From Candidatus Gastranaerophilales bacterium (lineage in GTDB: Bacteria; Cyanobacteriota; Vampirovibrionia; Gastranaerophilales; Gastranaerophilaceae): a DNA stretch of 29,702 nt. Positions 13,404-29,296 of the stretch are shown in pieces. The notes beneath the pieces were generated by a model. It saw only the letters and a list, made by a program, of their open reading frames with translations. It searched no databases and was not told where the DNA came from. The stretch spans positions 1-29,702 of the forward strand of contig CANQOM010000001.1 of NCBI GenBank assembly GCA_947625445.1. The letters run 5' to 3'. The translations under genes and the position numbers were made by a program. Each line of letters starts with the position of its first letter. Within the stretch, counting starts at the first letter, position 1.

Positions 13404-13434
13404 TTGACTTAGTGTTACTATCAAATATTAAAAT
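13404..13434 (+). promoter_or_regulatory. sigma70 promoter with over-long 19-nt spacer and partial dyad (MerR-type architecture) upstream of the Tat/AKR operon
   Basis: TTGACT (13404-13409), TAGTGTTACTATCAAATAT (19 nt), TAAAAT (13429-13434). Closely similar element at 19124-19154. Confidence 0.55.
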
Positions 13435-13453: not shown

Positions 13454-14682
13454 ATGAAACGTCGTGAATTTATATTAAATTCTATACTCGCAGCAGGAGG
13501 AACAGTATTATTAACAGGCTGCGGAAAAAAAGAACTTATTAAAGCTCAAGGACAAGTTGTAAAGAGAAAATACAAAGATATAGAAGTACCTTTATCGGCT
13601 TTGGTTGTATGAGACTGCCTATGGACGGCAAAAAGGTTGATATGGCAGAACTTGACAGAATGGTAGAGTATGCAATGGCTCATGGAGCTAATTATTTTGA
13701 CACTGCTTATATGTATGTCGATGAAATGAGTGAGATTGCTATTGGTAAAACACTTAAAAAATATGAAAGAGATTCTTTTATACTTGCAGATAAAAGTCCT
13801 ATATATAAAATGAGTTCACGAGAAGATGTAAGAAAAATATTTGATGAACAAAGAAAAAAGTGTCAGGTAGACTATTATGATTTTTATATGTGCCACAATA
13901 TTAACGTAAATACGGTTGATACGTACAGAAATGTCAAAATGTATGATGAACTGTTAAAATTAAAAGAAGAAGGTAAAATAAAATATTTAGGTTTCTCTTT
14001 CCATGGTACACCTGAAATATTGAGAGAAGTTGTAAAAGAACATCAATGGGATTTCGCTCAGCTTCAAGTTAATTATCTGGATTGGGATGTTGTAAAAGCT
14101 CATGAACAGTATGATATTGTTCAAGCTGAAGGTATACCTGTTACTGTAATGGAACCTTTAAGAGGAGGCGGATTAGTTAATTTAAGTGAAAAATCACTTG
14201 CAAAATTAAAAGAACATTATCCTAATGCAACTCCTGCAGAGTTTGGACTAAGATGGGCTGCTTCAAGAGCTAATGTTATTACAGTTTTGAGCGGTATGAG
14301 TAATTTACAACAGATGAAAGAAAATATTGCCACTTTTGAAAACTATATTCCAATGAGTGAAGATGAGATAAAAGTGGCAGATGAGATGGCGAAAATTATT
14401 CAATCACAAGGTGAAATAAATTGTACTGCTTGTAAGTATTGTATGGAAGTTTGCCCTAAAGGTATTAACATTCCTGCTATTTTCTCACTTTATAATCAGT
14501 ATAAAGTAATGAAAAGTCCTTTTCATTTAAAAATATATTATGAAACGCTTGCAGATAGTGAAAAAGCAAATAATTGCATAAAATGCGGTTTATGTAATAA
14601 AAATTGCCCTCAAAATTTACCTATACCTGATTTATTGGCACAGGTTCAAAGTGAGTATGAAAAGGCAAAGGCTAGTTCATAA
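13454..14682 (+). pseudogene. Tat-lipoprotein aldo/keto reductase with C-terminal 2x[4Fe-4S] domain, split by a 1-nt frameshift near 13591-13594 (pseudogene or sequencing error)
   Basis: AGGAG RBS then MKRREFILNSILAAGGTVLLTGC (RR motif + lipobox). Adding one base joins KRKYKDIEVPL to IGFGCMRLP in the second frame. AKR residues DTAYMY, ADK, HN; C-terminal CTACKYCMEVCP and CIKCGLCNKNCP. Repaired length about 409 aa. Confidence 0.85.
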
Positions 14683-15956
14683 TGTTATATAAAATAAGAT
14701 TTTTTATTGCAATTTTAGTATTTTTAATGGCAATAGTCGGCTTATTGGGTATTTTTTACCCTCTGCCGATTTTTGATGTTCAAATTGCTCCTTTAATTCA
14801 AAAAGTAATTATCGATTTTACGGTTATTGCCTTTATAACATTAGTTTTAATCATATTATTAACATTATTATTTGGCAGAATTTATTGTTCCGTTCTGTGT
14901 CCGTTCGGAATTTTTCAAGAATTTATTGCATTGTTAAGGGGAAAAAATAAGGAAAAAACAAGAGCTAATTTGCCGATAAAATACTTTATTTCTGCAATAA
15001 CATTCGGTGCATTAATCGGTGGAAGCGTATTAATTATAAGATATATAGAACCTTATACATATTTTGGTTCTGTTGTTACTTTGTCAATTATCGGAATTGT
15101 TGCGGCTATTATAATTTTAATACTTACTTTATCAAAAAACAGATATTTTTGCACAAATATATGTCCTGTAGGTTGTATTTTGGGACTGATTTCTAAGGTA
15201 TCATTACTTAAAATTCATATTAAAAAGGAAGATTGTGTATCTTGCAGGAAATGTGAAAAAAATTGTCCGTCCGGTTGCATAAGTATAGATACTCAAAATA
15301 TAGAAAATGAAACTTGCATAAAATGTTTAAAATGTATAGGATTGTGCCCTAAAAAAGCAATAAAATATTCTGTAAAACCCAAACAAGAAATAATATTTAG
15401 TCCAAAAAGACGTGAATTATTAATAGCAGGTTCTGCGCTTGTTATTCTTATAGGAGCGCTTAAGGCTGGATATGAATTAAGTAAAAATATGGCTCGTAAT
15501 GTCAGAAATGTAATTCTTCCTCTGGGGGCAATGAATGCAAACAGAATGTATAATAAATGTTTAAATTGTAATTTATGTGTAAAAGCATGCCCGAACAAAA
15601 TTTTAAAAAAAGCTGATAATAATTTTGGTGCTATTCATACAGATTATAATGAAGGTGAAAAATTCTGTAAATTTGACTGTATTGAGTGTTCTAAAGTTTG
15701 TCCTTCAGGTGCAATTAAAAAACTTAGTGTGGAAGAAAAACAGAGAACAAGGATTGCTATGGCGGTAATTAATCCTGAGAAGTGTACAAAATGCGGGATT
15801 TGTGTTTCAGAATGTCCTACAGGCGCAATAACAAAAGAAGAAAATAAAAATGCTATAGTAGATGCTTCAAAATGTATAGGTTGCGGAAAATGCAAAAAAC
15901 ATTGTCCTGCAAGTGCTATTGAAATATTTGCAATAAATGAGCAACAAAGGGTATAA
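14682..15956 (+). CDS. Membrane polyferredoxin (NapH/MauN-like N-half fused to NapG/MauM-like C-half), 5 predicted TM helices, internal twin-arginine motif
   Basis: Four N-terminal hydrophobic helices with CSVLCPFG and CTNICPVG motifs, two CxxCxxCxxxC motifs, SPKRRELL plus a fifth helix, then four more ferredoxin-type Cys motifs. Confidence 0.85.
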
Positions 15957-15976
15957 TCTTTTTAAAGGAGAATAAA

Positions 15977-16192
15977 ATGTCACTTGGAATAACTGAAATT
16001 ACTTTAATTATAGTTGTAATATTGCTCCTGTTTGGAGGTAAAAGAATACCTGAATTGGCAAGAGCTTTAGGTAAAGCATCTTATGAATTTAAAAAAGCTA
16101 AAGAGACTATAAAAAAAGAAACTGATGAATTAAAAGATGCGATAGAAGATGCACAAGAAAAACCTGAAGAATATAAACCTAAAGATGTCTAA
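15977..16192 (+). CDS. tatA: Twin-arginine translocase subunit TatA
   Basis: Short TM ending [25 protein letters not shown], charged tail, AAGGAG RBS. Confidence 0.93.
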
Positions 16193-16194
16193 AA

Positions 16195-16905
16195 ATGCAT
16201 AGTGAAGATGATAATGAAACCCTTATTTCTCACTTGGAAGCTTTAAGAAATACTCTCTTAAAGTGTTTATATTCTATTGCCATAATTTTACCTTTTACTT
16301 TTTTTATTGCACCTAAAGCACTTGATTTGTTAATAAAAATAATTATTGGCTCAAGTAATGTTACTTTGAATTTTTTTTCACCGGCAGAAGTTTTTATAAT
16401 CCAAATAAAAATGGCTTTAGTTTTAGATTTAATAATTAGTTGTCCTTATATTTTTAAACAATTATGGAATTTTCTTCTGCCTGCACTTTATGAACATGAA
16501 AAAAAATTTTTAAAATCCATAGTTTTAATTTCAAGTTCTTTATTTATATTGGGTGTTTTATTTTCTGTTTTTGTTATTCTTCCTTTTGTAATAAAATTCG
16601 GACTCAGTTTTGTTTCAAATAATATTCAAGCGGTTTTTGGAATATCAAATGTAGTAAATCTTGCTTTGTGGTTAAGTATTATTTTTGGTTTAATGTTTCA
16701 ATTACCTCTTATTACTTTTTGGCTGATAAAATCGAACATTGTGTCATATTCAACTATTGCAGATAAAAGACCATATGTTATTGTAGGGTTATTAATTATT
16801 GCAGGCTTTTTGACTCCTCCTGATGTTGTAAGTCAGCTAATGCTCGCCATTCCTTCTTATTTTCTTTTTGAGGCAGGGTTGTTTTTTGCAAAATTTAAAA
16901 AATAG
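16195..16905 (+). CDS. tatC: Twin-arginine translocase subunit TatC
   Basis: LISHLEALR, FSPAEVF..QIK, QLWNFLLPALYEHEKK, FQLPL, AGFLTPPDVVSQLMLAIP; six hydrophobic segments. Confidence 0.94.
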   Translation: MHSEDDNETLISHLEALRNTLLKCLYSIAIILPFTFFIAPKALDLLIKIIIGSSNVTLNFFSPAEVFIIQIKMALVLDLIISCPYIFKQLWNFLLPALYEHEKKFLKSIVLISSSLFILGVLFSVFVILPFVIKFGLSFVSNNIQAVFGISNVVNLALWLSIIFGLMFQLPLITFWLIKSNIVSYSTIADKRPYVIVGLLIIAGFLTPPDVVSQLMLAIPSYFLFEAGLFFAKFKK

Positions 16906-16953: not shown

Positions 16954-18054
16954 ATGAACAGTAATAATATGAGATACTGTAATATTGATTTTCTAAGATT
17001 TATACTTGCTATTATTATTGTATACGGACATTTAACAGGATTTTTAGGAAGTTTTTATGATTCCGAAATCATAAATAAACTTGTAAAAAATGCTATGTTG
17101 TCAGGCTCAAATTCAGTAAGTGCTTTTTTCATAATGAGTGGTTTCTTTTTGGCAGGTGTTTATTTTAAAAATCATTATAATAGTGTATTAGATTTTATAA
17201 TAAACAGATTTATAAGATTATGGCCTGTTATTGCATTTTCCGGTTTAATTCTTCTTATATTCGGGTGTTTTGACAGAAATGACTTGTTAAATTTATTTTT
17301 TGTAAGCAACGGATTGGCTCTTGTAAAAGAAGCTTCGCATAACGCTGCTATTTGGTTTGTATGTGTTTTATTTTTCTTAAGTGCATTTTTTTATTATATA
17401 TTGACAACATTTTCCCAAAGAAATAGTTTGTTTATTATTAGCATTATTACATTTTTTAATTCCGTCTTACTTGTTCAACAGGAAAACTCTATTTATTGCC
17501 ATATTATTACTCCGTTTTATTTAACGGTTGGAATGGTAAAAGGATTGGCTTGTATGGGATTGGGAATTTTAATCGGATTTTTGTATAAAAAATATTCTGT
17601 TAAATTACAAAAAATTAATGTGCTAACTTGTGTTAGTCTTAGTGTTATTGAGGGTATTTTATTATTTAATTACATATATTATAGTGTTTTCCATTCGTCA
17701 AAATATACAAACAGTATTTATTATATTTTGAATTTTTCATTATTATTTATCCTATTTTTATTAAGTAAAGGTATAATATCTCAATTTTTTAATAAAAAAA
17801 TATTTGGATTTCTTGGAAAATATTCATATTCAATATTTGTAATGCATTATGTTATAATAACAATTTTCCAAAAATACTTATGGAAATATATGACGGTAAA
17901 AGAAGCATTTATAATAACTGCAAGTGTATGTCTTGTAGCAGGTATATTAGTAAATATATATATAGAAAAGCCGTTAAATGCTTTAATAAAGGATAAAATA
18001 GCCAAATTAACCCTGGGGGGGGGATTTAGACTTAAATTTTCATGTAATTATTAA
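16954..18054 (+). CDS. Acyltransferase family 3 (OafA-like) membrane O-acyltransferase, no SGNH domain
   Basis: IDFLRFILAIIIVYGH, FFIMSGFF, NRFIRLWP, WFVCV, LGKYSYSIFVMH, YIEKP; about 10 hydrophobic segments. Confidence 0.87.
   Translation: MNSNNMRYCNIDFLRFILAIIIVYGHLTGFLGSFYDSEIINKLVKNAMLSGSNSVSAFFIMSGFFLAGVYFKNHYNSVLDFIINRFIRLWPVIAFSGLILLIFGCFDRNDLLNLFFVSNGLALVKEASHNAAIWFVCVLFFLSAFFYYILTTFSQRNSLFIISIITFFNSVLLVQQENSIYCHIITPFYLTVGMVKGLACMGLGILIGFLYKKYSVKLQKINVLTCVSLSVIEGILLFNYIYYSVFHSSKYTNSIYYILNFSLLFILFLLSKGIISQFFNKKIFGFLGKYSYSIFVMHYVIITIFQKYLWKYMTVKEAFIITASVCLVAGILVNIYIEKPLNALIKDKIAKLTLGGGFRLKFSCNY
18015..18023. repeat. G9 homopolymer in the 3' end of the acyltransferase gene
   Basis: CCCT-GGGGGGGGG-ATTT read directly; improbable by chance in this AT-rich window. 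Confidence 0.9.
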
Positions 18055-18105: not shown

Positions 18106-18987
18106 TTATGATTGTTTAATAATTGACTTTAAAGCCGTTAATTCATAATCGTTATAATTGGAATCTTTAAAAATTCCATTTAAGTCGTCTTCAGTTATTT
18201 CTGTGTTTAATCCCATATAATCCATTGTGGCTTTTATATTGATAAATTCTTCTATATTGGAACCGGATTTTGCAAGATCGTTTAAACTTTTTGTATATAT
18301 AGTGTTAATTCTATTGTTATAGCCTGATGTATTTAAATAATCTTTATCAAAGTTTTCGCCAAATTTGTTATATGCCATTTTCAATAATTTTATTTTTGTC
18401 TGACTTTCTGTTTGGTCATAACCACAAATACGAGAAATAATGTTTCCGAATGTATTATCTCCTGGATTAACTGATTTTGTATTAATCATATCATATATTT
18501 CTTTTACTTTGTCGTTTGCTAGTTCTTCATCAGTAAGACTACTATTTGGTTCAAATTTAATATCACCGCCTTTAACTTTAGTAGTTTTAGTTGTTTTTAA
18601 ATCTTCATCATTTTCATATATTTTATTTTTGCTTTCATCATAGGGTGTATTTTTAATGTATAAATCATTATCTTTATAATCATTTGCAAGGTCCATTAAT
18701 CCTGAAAATACTTGTTCTTTTACTGATTCATCATTATAATCTAAATTTATACTACTTAAATATGAATTAAGTGCCCCTTCGTTATGACTGTACCAGGTAT
18801 TAAATTCTTCCTGAGTAATAGTGGCATCATCATCGCTTAAAACATTTTGTAAATGTCCTCTTGAGAAAAAAACAGAAATTTCTTCGTCACTTAAATTTCC
18901 GTCTGTATTGTTCTTACCCGATTCATTATTTGTTAAGTATTGTTCATTTTGAATAAGGTAATCCTTCATGTTAATTCCATCTGTCAT
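18106..18987 (-). CDS. Orphan acidic Asn/Asp-rich hypothetical protein (293 aa) with two degenerate EF-hand-like loops
   Basis: Strong AGGAG RBS 6 nt upstream, long ORF filling the gap, no signal peptide or TM; loops KNNTDGNLSDEE and LSDDDATITQEE. Confidence 0.75.
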   Translation of the reverse strand: MTDGINMKDYLIQNEQYLTNNESGKNNTDGNLSDEEISVFFSRGHLQNVLSDDDATITQEEFNTWYSHNEGALNSYLSSINLDYNDESVKEQVFSGLMDLANDYKDNDLYIKNTPYDESKNKIYENDEDLKTTKTTKVKGGDIKFEPNSSLTDEELANDKVKEIYDMINTKSVNPGDNTFGNIISRICGYDQTESQTKIKLLKMAYNKFGENFDKDYLNTSGYNNRINTIYTKSLNDLAKSGSNIEEFINIKATMDYMGLNTEITEDDLNGIFKDSNYNDYELTALKSIIKQS

Positions 18988-27200: not shown

Positions 27201-27438
27201 TATCAATAATATATGTTAAAGATTCAAGTGTTAAAGGTTCTATATATACTTTATCCGCTATATTTTCATCTGTCATGATAGTTGCAGGATTAGAATTTAC
27301 TAGAATAACTTCTATGTTTTCTTCTTTAAGTGCTCTGCAAGCTTGAACTCCGGCATAATCAAATTCTGCCGCCTGACCTATTACAATTGGTCCCGAACCT
27401 ATTACTAATACTTTTTTTATATCTTTATTTATCGGCAT
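24202..27438 (-). CDS. carB: Carbamoyl-phosphate synthase large subunit
   Basis: [53 protein letters not shown], second ATP-grasp half [16 protein letters not shown]-terminal MGS-like domain. Start trimmed to ATG 27438 ([10 protein letters not shown]). Confidence 0.97.
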   Translation of the reverse strand: [1078 protein letters not shown]

Positions 27439-27454
27439 TTTATTTTTCCTTTTC

Positions 27455-29296
27455 TTATGCAATTACCATTTTTTTTGACTCTTCTACCTCTTTTACCCAT
27501 TGAGTTATTATTTTATTTGAATCATATGGGCCAACAGTCAATTCAGGATGAAATTGTACGGTTTTTATATTATATTTCTCACAACTTATTCCTTCTATTG
27601 TATTATCATTTAAATTTATATACGTAGCTTCAACACCATCAGGAAGTGAATCTGCTTTTACAGCATAACTGTGGTTTTGAGAAGTAACGAAAATTTCACC
27701 CGTTTTTGTATCCATAACAGGGTGATTTCCCCCTCTATGTCCGTATTTTAATTTATATGTTTCGGCTCCTAAAGATAGAGATATTATTTGATGGCCTAAA
27801 CATATTCCATATAATTTTATTTTACCCTTTAAGTCTTTTGCGGTTTTTATTGCAATAGTGGCATCTTCAGGGTTCCCGGGGCCGTTTGATATTAATACTG
27901 CATCAAAATCTTCTTTTAATATATCTTCTGCTTTTGTATCTGCAGGAAATAGGGTTATTGCACAATTAAGAGATTTAAAATTATCAAAAATACTCTTTTT
28001 TATACCCATATCAATTATTGCAAGTTTTATTCCGCTTCCTTGGAATTTTTCTACTTTATATGTCGTTATATCTAAAGTTACATTTTTACTTATTTTATAA
28101 TCTTTTATATTTTTCTTTATTTCAGGTGTTATTTCACCTGTTGTTATTGCACAGTTCATTGCTCCGAAATTTCTTATAATTTGAGTAAGATATCTTGTAT
28201 CTACTCCTTTTATTCCTACAATATTATTTTGTTTAAGATATTCACCTAATGATATTGAACTTTTGTAATGAGATTCATGTTCACATAGATTTTTTACGAC
28301 AAAACCTTTAGCATGAATCCTTCCTGATTCAAAATCATCTTTATTTATACCGTAATTGCCAATTTCAGGATATGTCATAACTATTGTTTGACCGCAATAT
28401 GAAGGGTCTGTTAAAACTTCTTGATAACCTACCATTGAAGTATTAAATACTATTTCTCCATATGAAGTACCTTCTATACCAATTGATTCGCCTTCAAATA
28501 TCATTCCGTTTTCAAGAATAAGTCTTGCTTTATTTGATGATACATATGATTTATTTTGAGTTAAAAGAGCATTTTCAATTTCTTCATAAATCATTTTAAT
28601 AGCTTTAACTCTGTCTTCTGCATTTGTAACTGCTCTGCCTATAACAAGATAATCAGCGCCTTCTTTTATTGCTAAACTTGGAGTAGCAAGTCGTTTTTGG
28701 TCATTTTTATTTGACCAATCAGGTCTTATTCCCGGGCATAAAACTTTGAAATCTTTTCCGCATACTTGTTTAATTTTTTTTGCTTCCCATACACTTGCCA
28801 CTACTCCGTCTAATCCTGCCCTTTTCGCCATTAAAGCCAGATTCAAAGCATATTCTTTTGGTTTATATGGAATTTTTAGTTCATTTTGGAGGCAATCTTC
28901 ACTAATACTGGTTAAAACTGTTACTCCTAAAATAGTAGGATTCTCTCGTCCTAATTCTTTTGCAACTTTTCTTGCAGACTCTTGTGCCATTCTCATCATT
29001 TCTTCTCCGCCTGTTGTATGAAGGTTAAAAAATGATGCTCCGTTTCTTACAATATTTTCTGATGCTTTTGCTACTGTATTTGGTATATCATGCAGTTTTA
29101 CGTCAAAAAAGAATTTTATGTTTTGTTCTTTCATAAAATTAAATATTTCATATCCGTTCCCGGTATACATTTGCAATCCGACTTTAAAGACTCCTACATA
29201 ATCTTTTAATTCCGTTATTAACTGTTTTGCTTCTTGAAGTGTATCAACATCAAGAGCTAAAACTATTTTTTCTTTTATTTCAGGTCTTATTTGCAT
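27455..29296 (-). CDS. pyrF-carA: In-frame fusion: OMP decarboxylase (PyrF, aa ~1-243) + carbamoyl-phosphate synthase small subunit (CarA, aa ~255-613)
   Basis: PyrF: ALDV, KVG, DVKLHDIPNTV, GVTVLTS, PGIRP, DQKR, GADYLVIGR. CarA: LILENG..FEG, GEIVFNTSMVGYQEVLTDPSY, NGPGNP, GICLGHQ, SQNH, QFHPE. No stop or Met at the junction. Confidence 0.92.
   Translation of the reverse strand: MQIRPEIKEKIVLALDVDTLQEAKQLITELKDYVGVFKVGLQMYTGNGYEIFNFMKEQNIKFFFDVKLHDIPNTVAKASENIVRNGASFFNLHTTGGEEMMRMAQESARKVAKELGRENPTILGVTVLTSISEDCLQNELKIPYKPKEYALNLALMAKRAGLDGVVASVWEAKKIKQVCGKDFKVLCPGIRPDWSNKNDQKRLATPSLAIKEGADYLVIGRAVTNAEDRVKAIKMIYEEIENALLTQNKSYVSSNKARLILENGMIFEGESIGIEGTSYGEIVFNTSMVGYQEVLTDPSYCGQTIVMTYPEIGNYGINKDDFESGRIHAKGFVVKNLCEHESHYKSSISLGEYLKQNNIVGIKGVDTRYLTQIIRNFGAMNCAITTGEITPEIKKNIKDYKISKNVTLDITTYKVEKFQGSGIKLAIIDMGIKKSIFDNFKSLNCAITLFPADTKAEDILKEDFDAVLISNGPGNPEDATIAIKTAKDLKGKIKLYGICLGHQIISLSLGAETYKLKYGHRGGNHPVMDTKTGEIFVTSQNHSYAVKADSLPDGVEATYINLNDNTIEGISCEKYNIKTVQFHPELTVGPYDSNKIITQWVKEVEESKKMVIA

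Follow-up and report, generated by a model that had tools for sequence, protein, structure and literature searches.

Few enzyme families are known to use a nickel-pincer cofactor: to the LarA racemases and an ornithine cyclodeaminase, soluble aldo-keto reductases (AKRs) were added in June 2026 (PMC13524815). Among these reductases, the AKR-fold protein NphT uses the nickel-pincer mononucleotide (Semersky et al., Nat Chem 2026, PMC13524815; PDB 9YEB), with His144 of a T142-x-H144 motif as nickel ligand and Lys200 as covalent tether of the cofactor; a further mark of such AKRs is a small cofactor cavity with no room for the AMP part of NAD(P). The same paper reports hundreds of lar-linked AKRs, 40% of them with the nickel-binding histidine and without the tethering lysine, and raises a dinucleotide form of the cofactor as an option. 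A different group of redox proteins, the NapH-NapG fusion polyferredoxins, is inserted into the membrane by the Sec and twin-arginine translocation (Tat) machineries together, as Tooke et al. demonstrated (eLife 2017, PMC5449189); the features tested experimentally there, for protein Q1NSB0 of delta proteobacterium MLMS-1, are a twin arginine before a weakly hydrophobic helix and positive charges after it. Here we describe a locus at which an AKR with iron-sulphur (Fe-S) motifs, a polyferredoxin, TatA and TatC are encoded one after the other, a short distance upstream of genes for nickel-pincer synthesis. The four genes occupy positions 13454-16905 on the plus strand of a 29,702-nucleotide stretch from a Candidatus Gastranaerophilales bacterium (assembly GCA_947625445.1, contig CANQOM010000001.1), called the window below. 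On balance, we believe that the window holds the core of a conserved Gastranaerophilales block for a membrane-wired extracytoplasmic oxidoreductase.

The window is contig C1 of a metagenome-assembled genome (labelled G000) that comprises 229 contigs and is 84% complete. The source sequencing runs are rabbit gut metagenomes, and close homologues bear the names Candidatus Gastranaerophilales or Ca. Adamsella. Our sample of the order consisted of 151 genomes, 116 of them from the window's own family. Labels of the form G### denote genomes of relatives and L### their loci, L002 being the Ca. Adamsella locus. Two relatives with the four-gene module (G016 and G029) and two without it (G045 and G066) are each about 99% complete.

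The reductase, the polyferredoxin and their translocase

The akr gene is followed by genes for a polyferredoxin of 424 aa (14682-15956), TatA (71 aa, 15977-16192; PF02416 at 9.5e-17, TIGR01411 above its cut-off) and TatC (236 aa, 16195-16905; PF00902 at 3.2e-56 over its full length). The stop codon of akr and the start codon of the polyferredoxin gene share a TAATG overlap at 14680-14684, and gaps of 20 and 2 nucleotides precede tatA and tatC, respectively. This is the tight packing reported in a first-pass annotation of the locus, whose gene content and gene order also held under Pfam analysis (AKR plus 4Fe-4S dicluster, Fer4_5/NapH-like polyferredoxin, TatA_B_E and TatC); its description of akr as a single gene did not, as a one-base deletion prevents akr from being one open frame in this window. 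A survey of co-occurrence, which had been proposed in that annotation, found the order akr-polyferredoxin-tatA-tatC retained in about 27 of 30 related loci, with the adjacency of tatA and tatC conserved, and the order is also kept in the more divergent loci L038, L040, L041, L042, L044, L089, L135 and L136. Because the same order recurs in nearly all of the approximately 30 related loci, the clustering of the four genes is far beyond chance. To judge from the sequences, AKR and polyferredoxin have been conserved together, in divergent lineages as well.

The first piece of akr (13454-13594) encodes a signal peptide of Tat/lipoprotein type (MKRREF...LLTGC) with the first residues of the mature enzyme and ends at the deletion, whereas the second, in another frame (13597-14682), encodes the AKR TIM barrel (PF00248, 2.3e-44) and a C-terminal 2x[4Fe-4S] domain (Fer4_9/Fer4_17). 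The N-terminus, MKRREFILNSILAAGGTVLLTGC, contains a twin arginine (RR) and a lipobox and is conserved in all of the 28 relatives inspected. Sequence and Pfam matches agree here with the earlier description of an RR-lipoprotein AKR with Fe-S motifs. The catalytic tetrad D-Y-K-H is invariant or nearly so. The intact ortholog from Ca. Adamsella (L002), modelled by AlphaFold with a pLDDT of 95.7, has the AKR fold (TM about 0.8 to solved AKRs) and consists of a canonical AKR barrel and a helical Fe-S domain without a solved counterpart; the structures nearest to the model are NADP-bound AKRs. This AKR is the sole PF00248 protein in G000 and in G029, and no PF00248 protein was found in the module-less G045 and G066. 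It had been remarked that similar AKR plus 4Fe-4S pairs occur in anaerobes, which is true, but most of those reductases are cytoplasmic, an RR signal being present in about 12 of 150 cluster representatives of AKR-plus-4Fe-4S proteins. Literature searches for the combination of Tat, AKR and 4Fe-4S and for COG1453 gave nothing relevant.

Hydropathy places five helices in the polyferredoxin, at residues 7-25, 42-60, 101-119, 131-149 and 246-264, the first four strongly hydrophobic. Two CX3CP motifs (at 69 and 157) and two CxxCxxCxxxCP motifs (at 185 and 212) precede an internal twin arginine (SPKRRELL), which stands directly before helix 5, the least hydrophobic of the five (mean Kyte-Doolittle value 1.93) and itself followed by K/R. 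Four 4Fe-4S motifs lie past this helix, at 293, 329, 368 and 398. Hydropathy and cysteine motifs therefore confirm a five-helix polyferredoxin with an RR motif and Fe-S motifs on both predicted sides, as first annotated. It had been taken for an unknown conduit, however, and its sequence marks it instead as a NapH-NapG fusion of the dual Sec/Tat class with five transmembrane domains, as that class is characterized in the relevant passages of PMC5449189: the NCBIfam NapH model matches residues 38-234 (2e-31, yet below the equivalog cut-off) and NapG/MauM-type models match residues 239-415. With Q1NSB0, as described in those passages, it shares the five helices, cytoplasmic Fe-S motifs, four outer [4Fe-4S] motifs, and an RR immediately before a weakly hydrophobic helix 5 with positive charges after it. 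The number of cytoplasmic clusters may differ between the two, the protein in the window having two dicluster motifs and two CX3CP motifs. A further difference is that the same passages address membrane insertion only and name no redox partner or dedicated translocase, whereas here genes for an Fe-S AKR and TatAC adjoin. Since the AKR carries an RR/lipobox signal and the polyferredoxin belongs to the class inserted by Sec and Tat, both upstream proteins are predicted to be Tat clients, the AKR as a soluble lipoprotein and the polyferredoxin through its last helix and outer domain.

A second known relative is the NapGH quinol dehydrogenase of E. coli and Wolinella succinogenes, which hands electrons to a periplasmic reductase. 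The likeness extends to a NapH-like four-helix part with CX3CP and cytoplasmic clusters and to a NapG-like, Tat-exported four-cluster part. In contrast to NapGH, both parts form one chain here, nap genes are missing, an AKR takes the place of a molybdoenzyme as partner, and searches for menaquinone synthesis yielded neither MenB nor MqnA, and only MenG and a UbiA-like gene in relatives.

Profile searches of the 84% complete genome gave a single TatA (one PF02416 protein), a single TatC (one PF00902 protein) and no second TatA/B-family gene; G016 and G029 likewise have one of each. The minimal TatAC without tatB that had been described thus stands, and it is the only tatAC of this genome. Neither tatA nor tatC was found in the module-less G045 and G066. 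Within the family, the polyferredoxin is present in 34 and TatC in 35 of the 116 genomes, these being the same genomes save for a few degraded or contig-end cases, and TatC is almost always encoded within a few hundred bases of the polyferredoxin; in the whole order the counts are 38 and 50 of 151. Across 117 family genomes TatC is thus nearly confined to the neighbourhood of the module. A regular-expression scan of all open reading frames (ORFs) of the genome for RR substrates gave nothing convincing beyond the AKR and the polyferredoxin, and one look-alike that was checked proved to be a PMP-repeat surface protein. Given the co-occurrence and adjacency of TatC and polyferredoxin, the single copies, the absence of both Tat genes from module-less relatives and the lack of another RR substrate, this TatA/TatC pair appears to be dedicated to the AKR and the polyferredoxin, and the suggestion that the translocase is encoded with its substrates is well supported.

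Nickel-pincer genes and a shared operator

In this genome two inserted genes separate tatC from a second part of the block, also on the plus strand, which begins with larB, for the nickel-pincer cofactor carboxylase/hydrolase (19161-19859; NCBIfam NF033503, 283.7 bits against a cut-off of 175). Then come a short larC encoding the LarC1 nickel-insertion domain only (19828-20589; PF01969 positions 1-234 of 375; TIGR00299.2 LarC1, 189.5 bits against a cut-off of 90) and a gene for a CbiM-PDGLE transporter component, probably for nickel uptake (20602-21507; PF01891 at 7.4e-48 and PF13190, all NCBIfam CbiM models below their cut-offs). The position of the CbiM-PDGLE gene is common to relatives. The larE gene is found on contig C66 of the genome, away from the window. 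In G029 the order is fldx4-akr-pfd-tatA-tatC-larB-larC1-cbiM-larE, where fldx4 and pfd stand for flavodoxin and polyferredoxin genes and larB overlaps tatC; Ca. Adamsella (L002) has the same arrangement minus the flavodoxin gene. AKR-FeS genes, that is, genes for AKRs with the Fe-S domain, also lie directly beside larBCE in two Firmicutes (L046 and L063).

The short LarC is present in 27 of the 30 family genomes with an orthologous module, against 1 of the 87 without it. In genus g2, the identical 7 of 30 genomes carry both. The sole module-less genome with LarC, G057, retains a larB truncated at its 5' end; its locus (L137, G057:C13) is a remnant with the truncated larB, larC1, cbiM and larE from which the AKR-polyferredoxin-Tat part is gone. 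Such a remnant is consistent, at the level of sequence, with stepwise loss of the whole block.

A promoter-operator consisting of TTGACTGATAGTAACTATCA, a 19-nucleotide spacer and TAAAAT lies upstream of both akr and larB, in the window (from 13404 and 19124, respectively), in L002 and in L123. The copy before akr (13404-13434, plus strand), read directly, has TTGACT, a 19-nucleotide spacer with the imperfect dyad TTGACTTAGTGTTACTATCAA, and TAAAAT, and the copy before larB (19124-19154, plus strand) has TTGACTGATAGTAACTGTCAA, a 19-nucleotide spacer and TAAAAT. In relatives the same dyad promoter precedes akr or flavodoxin-akr, and larB. The TTGACTGATAGTAACT... operator-promoter was also located at two other places in the genome: before an operon of FMN_red and a Flavodoxin_4 protein with a signal peptide, beside rubrerythrin (G000:C12:7495-8721, minus strand), and before a DUF362 gene with a weak Lar_N-like match (G000:C39:6791-7675, plus strand). 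This distribution suggests a small regulon common to akr, larB, the FMN_red-Flavodoxin_4 operon and the DUF362 gene.

We looked for other proteins that could use the cofactor. LarA and ornithine cyclodeaminase were candidates and neither was found: no Lar_N (LarA) match rose above the cut-off in any of the 151 genomes of the order, and no ornithine cyclodeaminase was detected in the five genomes searched. DUF362 was rejected as an obligate pincer user, in spite of its weak Lar_N-like match and shared operator, for it occurs in just 12 of the 116 family genomes.

In every LarC-bearing genome of the family, LarC spans only Pfam positions 1-235 of 375 (LarC1); elsewhere in the order, LarC occurs in other families either at full length or split. 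LarC converts an AMP-dinucleotide precursor (PMC13510736), and an enzyme with LarC1 only is therefore plausible, as activation by CTP would not be needed for such a precursor.

Cofactor, electron path and competing explanations

The AKR resembles NphT in its TIM barrel and D-Y-K-H tetrad, in a histidine placed two residues past a Ser/Thr, a candidate nickel ligand by its spacing, and in its sequence match to 9YEB (E value 5e-8 with a single sequence and 3.5e-15 with a profile); like other NphT-type AKRs, it is associated in the genome with larB, larC and larE without larA. The histidine belongs to a GFSFH motif (S-x-H) that is invariant in the AKR-FeS family and lies 36 residues past the catalytic His, compared to 38 in NphT, the two histidines being tentatively equated by this spacing and not by residue alignment. 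The differences are also considerable. NphT is a soluble protein of 291 aa, and PMC13524815 mentions neither Fe-S clusters nor a signal peptide nor a place in the periplasm, whereas the protein described here has a C-terminal 2x[4Fe-4S] domain, a Tat/lipoprotein signal, a polyferredoxin partner and a private TatAC. It also lacks the tethering lysine, is accompanied by a LarC1-only LarC and keeps a longer nucleotide-binding motif.

With some reserve, we favor the view that the AKR is an exported, Fe-S-wired nickel-pincer enzyme in which this cofactor replaces NAD(P)H. The first-pass annotation had addressed the problem that NAD(P)H poses outside the cytoplasm, but it missed the link to larB, larC1, larE and cbiM that we add here. 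A pincer cofactor in place of diffusible NAD(P)H would explain how the enzyme works outside the cell, and the co-regulated larB, larC1, larE and cbiM, together with the precedent of an AKR-fold pincer enzyme, probably offer the simplest resolution of the paradox. No exported or Fe-S-wired nickel-pincer AKR was found described in the literature searched.

As for the way the system could work, we infer the identity of the cofactor, the contact between AKR and polyferredoxin, the quinone link, the flow of electrons through the Fe-S clusters, and the substrate and direction of the reaction. The AKR-2x[4Fe-4S] protein would fold in the cytoplasm and receive there its Fe-S clusters and, most probably, a nickel-pincer nucleotide made by LarB, LarE and the LarC1-only LarC with nickel imported by the CbiM-like transporter. 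The folded AKR would then be exported by the neighbouring TatA/TatC and stay lipid-anchored at the outer face of the inner membrane, while helices 1-4 of the polyferredoxin would be inserted through Sec, and helix 5 and the outer four-cluster domain through the same Tat machine. At the AKR active site the bound cofactor, replacing diffusible NAD(P)H, would carry out hydride chemistry on a carbonyl or alcohol, and electrons would pass between the cofactor, the two clusters of the AKR, the NapG-like clusters outside and the membrane part of NapH type, which would hand them on to quinone or to the pair of clusters on the cytoplasmic side. Many relatives have, immediately before akr and in one operon with it, a gene for a 190-aa Flavodoxin_4 protein that carries a Sec-type signal or anchor (L124:3031-3600, L123:3826-4395); in the genome of the window this gene is elsewhere (C12). 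From its sequence, such an exported flavodoxin-like partner could be a converter between two-electron and one-electron steps. A MenG/UbiE methyltransferase is above its cut-off in the four relatives G016, G029, G045 and G066, with or without the module, and the same four have a UbiA-like prenyltransferase below its cut-off, which suggests that these gut Melainabacteria may complete menaquinone from a salvaged naphthoate precursor. Only tentatively do we propose the larger picture, in which the pincer cofactor goes beyond moving hydride from one substrate to another and, with no need of flavin or NAD, couples the two-electron chemistry of hydride to one-electron transfer through Fe-S clusters, in a new extracytoplasmic dehydrogenase or reductase that feeds or drains a membrane electron path and gives the supposedly fermentative gut Melainabacteria a respiration-like outlet, Tat being kept for it alone.

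Several observations weigh against a nickel-pincer AKR of this kind. LarC turned up in no more than 28 of the 50 AKR-FeS genomes surveyed in other phyla, so that a universal AKR-FeS/LarC link across phyla is unsupported, and it is absent from the isolate Oscillibacter sp. 1-3 despite an AKR-FeS protein. No LarC2 (CTP-binding) domain was found in the LarC-bearing genomes of the family. The whole AKR-FeS family keeps the S-x-H motif, members from genomes without LarC included. The covalent lysine of NphT has no counterpart, the candidate positions being occupied by Glu (in MEPL) or Arg (in PLRGG); at the PLRGG position, 42 of 135 relatives have Lys instead. The protein keeps LSGMS...EN, the nucleotide-binding motif found at the C-terminus of NAD(P)H-type AKRs, which suggests a longer pocket and, as a matter of speculation, might fit the dinucleotide form of the pincer cofactor. 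Five 99%-complete genomes of the family contain a second, divergent AKR-polyferredoxin-TatAC module (45-47% AKR identity) and no LarC, so an exported AKR-FeS protein is not always paired with synthesis of the cofactor. Physical linkage alone could yield part of the co-occurrence. With respect to the electron path, we know of no precedent for a pincer cofactor whose hydride electrons go to Fe-S clusters, which accept one at a time; searches of five genomes gave no MenB or MqnA, leaving the quinone link unsupported, and those of family genomes gave no Rnf or NuoH. The classical and futalosine routes to menaquinone, Rnf and complex I were thus discarded as electron source in the genomes searched. 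To these points the frameshifted akr of the window itself must be added.

Divergent modules were located at L135 (G117), L136 (G056) and L038. The one in G117 is flanked by genes for a DUF1893 (TM1506)-domain protein and a 5'-nucleotidase-type phosphoesterase, and a DUF1893 gene follows tatC in L038. These neighbours may reflect cofactor salvage or a different cofactor.

One competing explanation is that the exported AKR carries tightly bound NAD(P)(H) through Tat, or has no nucleotide cofactor at all, and that the lar genes are linked neighbours serving another enzyme. The glucose-fructose oxidoreductase of Zymomonas mobilis shows that a hydride cofactor can be exported in this way: it is periplasmic, is exported folded by Tat with NADP bound, and does not exchange this cofactor. 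It is, like the putative role of the AKR, a sugar/carbonyl oxidoreductase, but it has a Rossmann/GFO-IDH-MocA fold, no Fe-S cluster, no membrane partner, and NADP in place of a nickel pincer. The retained LSGMS...EN motif and full catalytic tetrad, the proximity of the model to NADP-bound AKRs, the 22 of 50 AKR-FeS genomes without LarC, the divergent exported module in a genome without LarC and a family-wide histidine that is not specific to lar-bearing genomes all speak for bound NAD(P)(H). Yet neighbours serving another enzyme would hardly account for the overlap of larB with tatC in one operon of G029, for an operator common to akr and larB in three genomes, for the matching patchy distribution of short LarC and orthologous module within genera (the same 7 of 30 genomes in g2) or for a larB truncated once the module was lost (G057), and there is no LarA, no ornithine cyclodeaminase and no constant DUF362 to use the cofactor. 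Besides, for Fe-S clusters to reduce NAD(P)+, a flavin or another converter between two-electron and one-electron steps is required. We regard this explanation as unlikely. About as low we rate the chance that the module is chiefly a stress or detoxification device against toxic quinones or aldehydes, which it would reduce on the cell surface under the control of a regulator of the MerR type, and not an energy-linked electron sink or dehydrogenase. The dyad promoter with its 19-nucleotide spacer does precede the operon of FMN reductase and exported Flavodoxin_4 by rubrerythrin and the DUF362 gene, the genes immediately upstream in G029 are those of an RND pump and a TolC-like protein, and MerR-family regulators are present; the operator has no assigned regulator, however, and MerR genes occur in module-less genomes too. 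In any case this proposal concerns the physiological role and not the mechanism, and it is compatible with a nickel-pincer enzyme.

The frameshift raises a third alternative, namely that the module is a recently inactivated remnant in this strain, in which the deletion severs the signal peptide from the enzyme and nothing functional is exported. The ORF of the signal peptide (13454-13612) halts at a TGA codon (13610-13612) and the body of the AKR is in another frame, owing to one C missing after 13594 (CCTTTA-TCGGC compared to CCTTTACTCGGC). Independent frameshifts at other sites affect akr in L004, L018 and L033, the polyferredoxin is broken in the relatives G068, G097, G136 and G140, only about one in four genomes of the order has the module, and the block is here also divided by the two inserted genes. 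Programmed frameshifting was rejected, as the breaks in the window, L004 and L018 differ in site and sequence and most relatives are in frame. In spite of these lesions, we consider an inactivated remnant quite improbable. The deletion is a lone lesion within an otherwise intact, fully conserved akr ORF, and the remaining genes are all intact. A contig from a separate sequencing run, which differs over 7.8 kb by 31 mismatches and 2 indels (99.58% identity), has the extra C (CCTTTACTCGGC) and an intact akr of 409 aa, which means that the species possesses the whole gene. The assembly word depth of the window is about 4x, and the rabbit gut runs gave no contig across 13354-13730. Given this depth, and a similar lesion in the relative L005 on a 4.6x contig, indel errors are plausible; the deletion at 13594/13595 is either a strain mutation or an assembly error.

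Neighbouring genes and biological significance

The two genes inserted between tatC and larB are an Acyl_transf_3 gene (16954-18054) and an orphan gene on the minus strand (18106-18987). Near the 3' end of the former there is a poly-G tract (18006-18023) with G9 here and G10 in the 99.6%-identical strain, a difference that alters the C-terminus of the protein (366 compared to 358 aa). A second G9 tract (19031-19039) is intergenic and lies before the orphan gene. Slipped-strand variation may occur at both tracts. Past the lar/cbiM genes, in the window as in Ca. Adamsella (L002), a gene (21579-22145 in the window) encodes a CxxCxxCC (YkgJ-type) protein, which may be a further member of the block. 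Farther along, a single 612-aa ORF on the minus strand (27455-29296) fuses OMP decarboxylase (PyrF) with the small chain/glutamine amidotransferase of carbamoyl-phosphate synthase (CarA) and is directly upstream of carB (24202-27462).

If the AKR is an exported nickel-pincer enzyme as proposed, this compact system of about nine genes would extend nickel-pincer chemistry to redox reactions coupled to electron transfer outside the cytoplasm. It would also give a role to the large uncharacterised family of AKR-plus-ferredoxin proteins, provide the dual Sec/Tat polyferredoxins with a physiological partner and represent a clean natural case of a Tat system retained for two substrates only. The view of the Gastranaerophilales as bacteria without membrane electron transport would then need revision.

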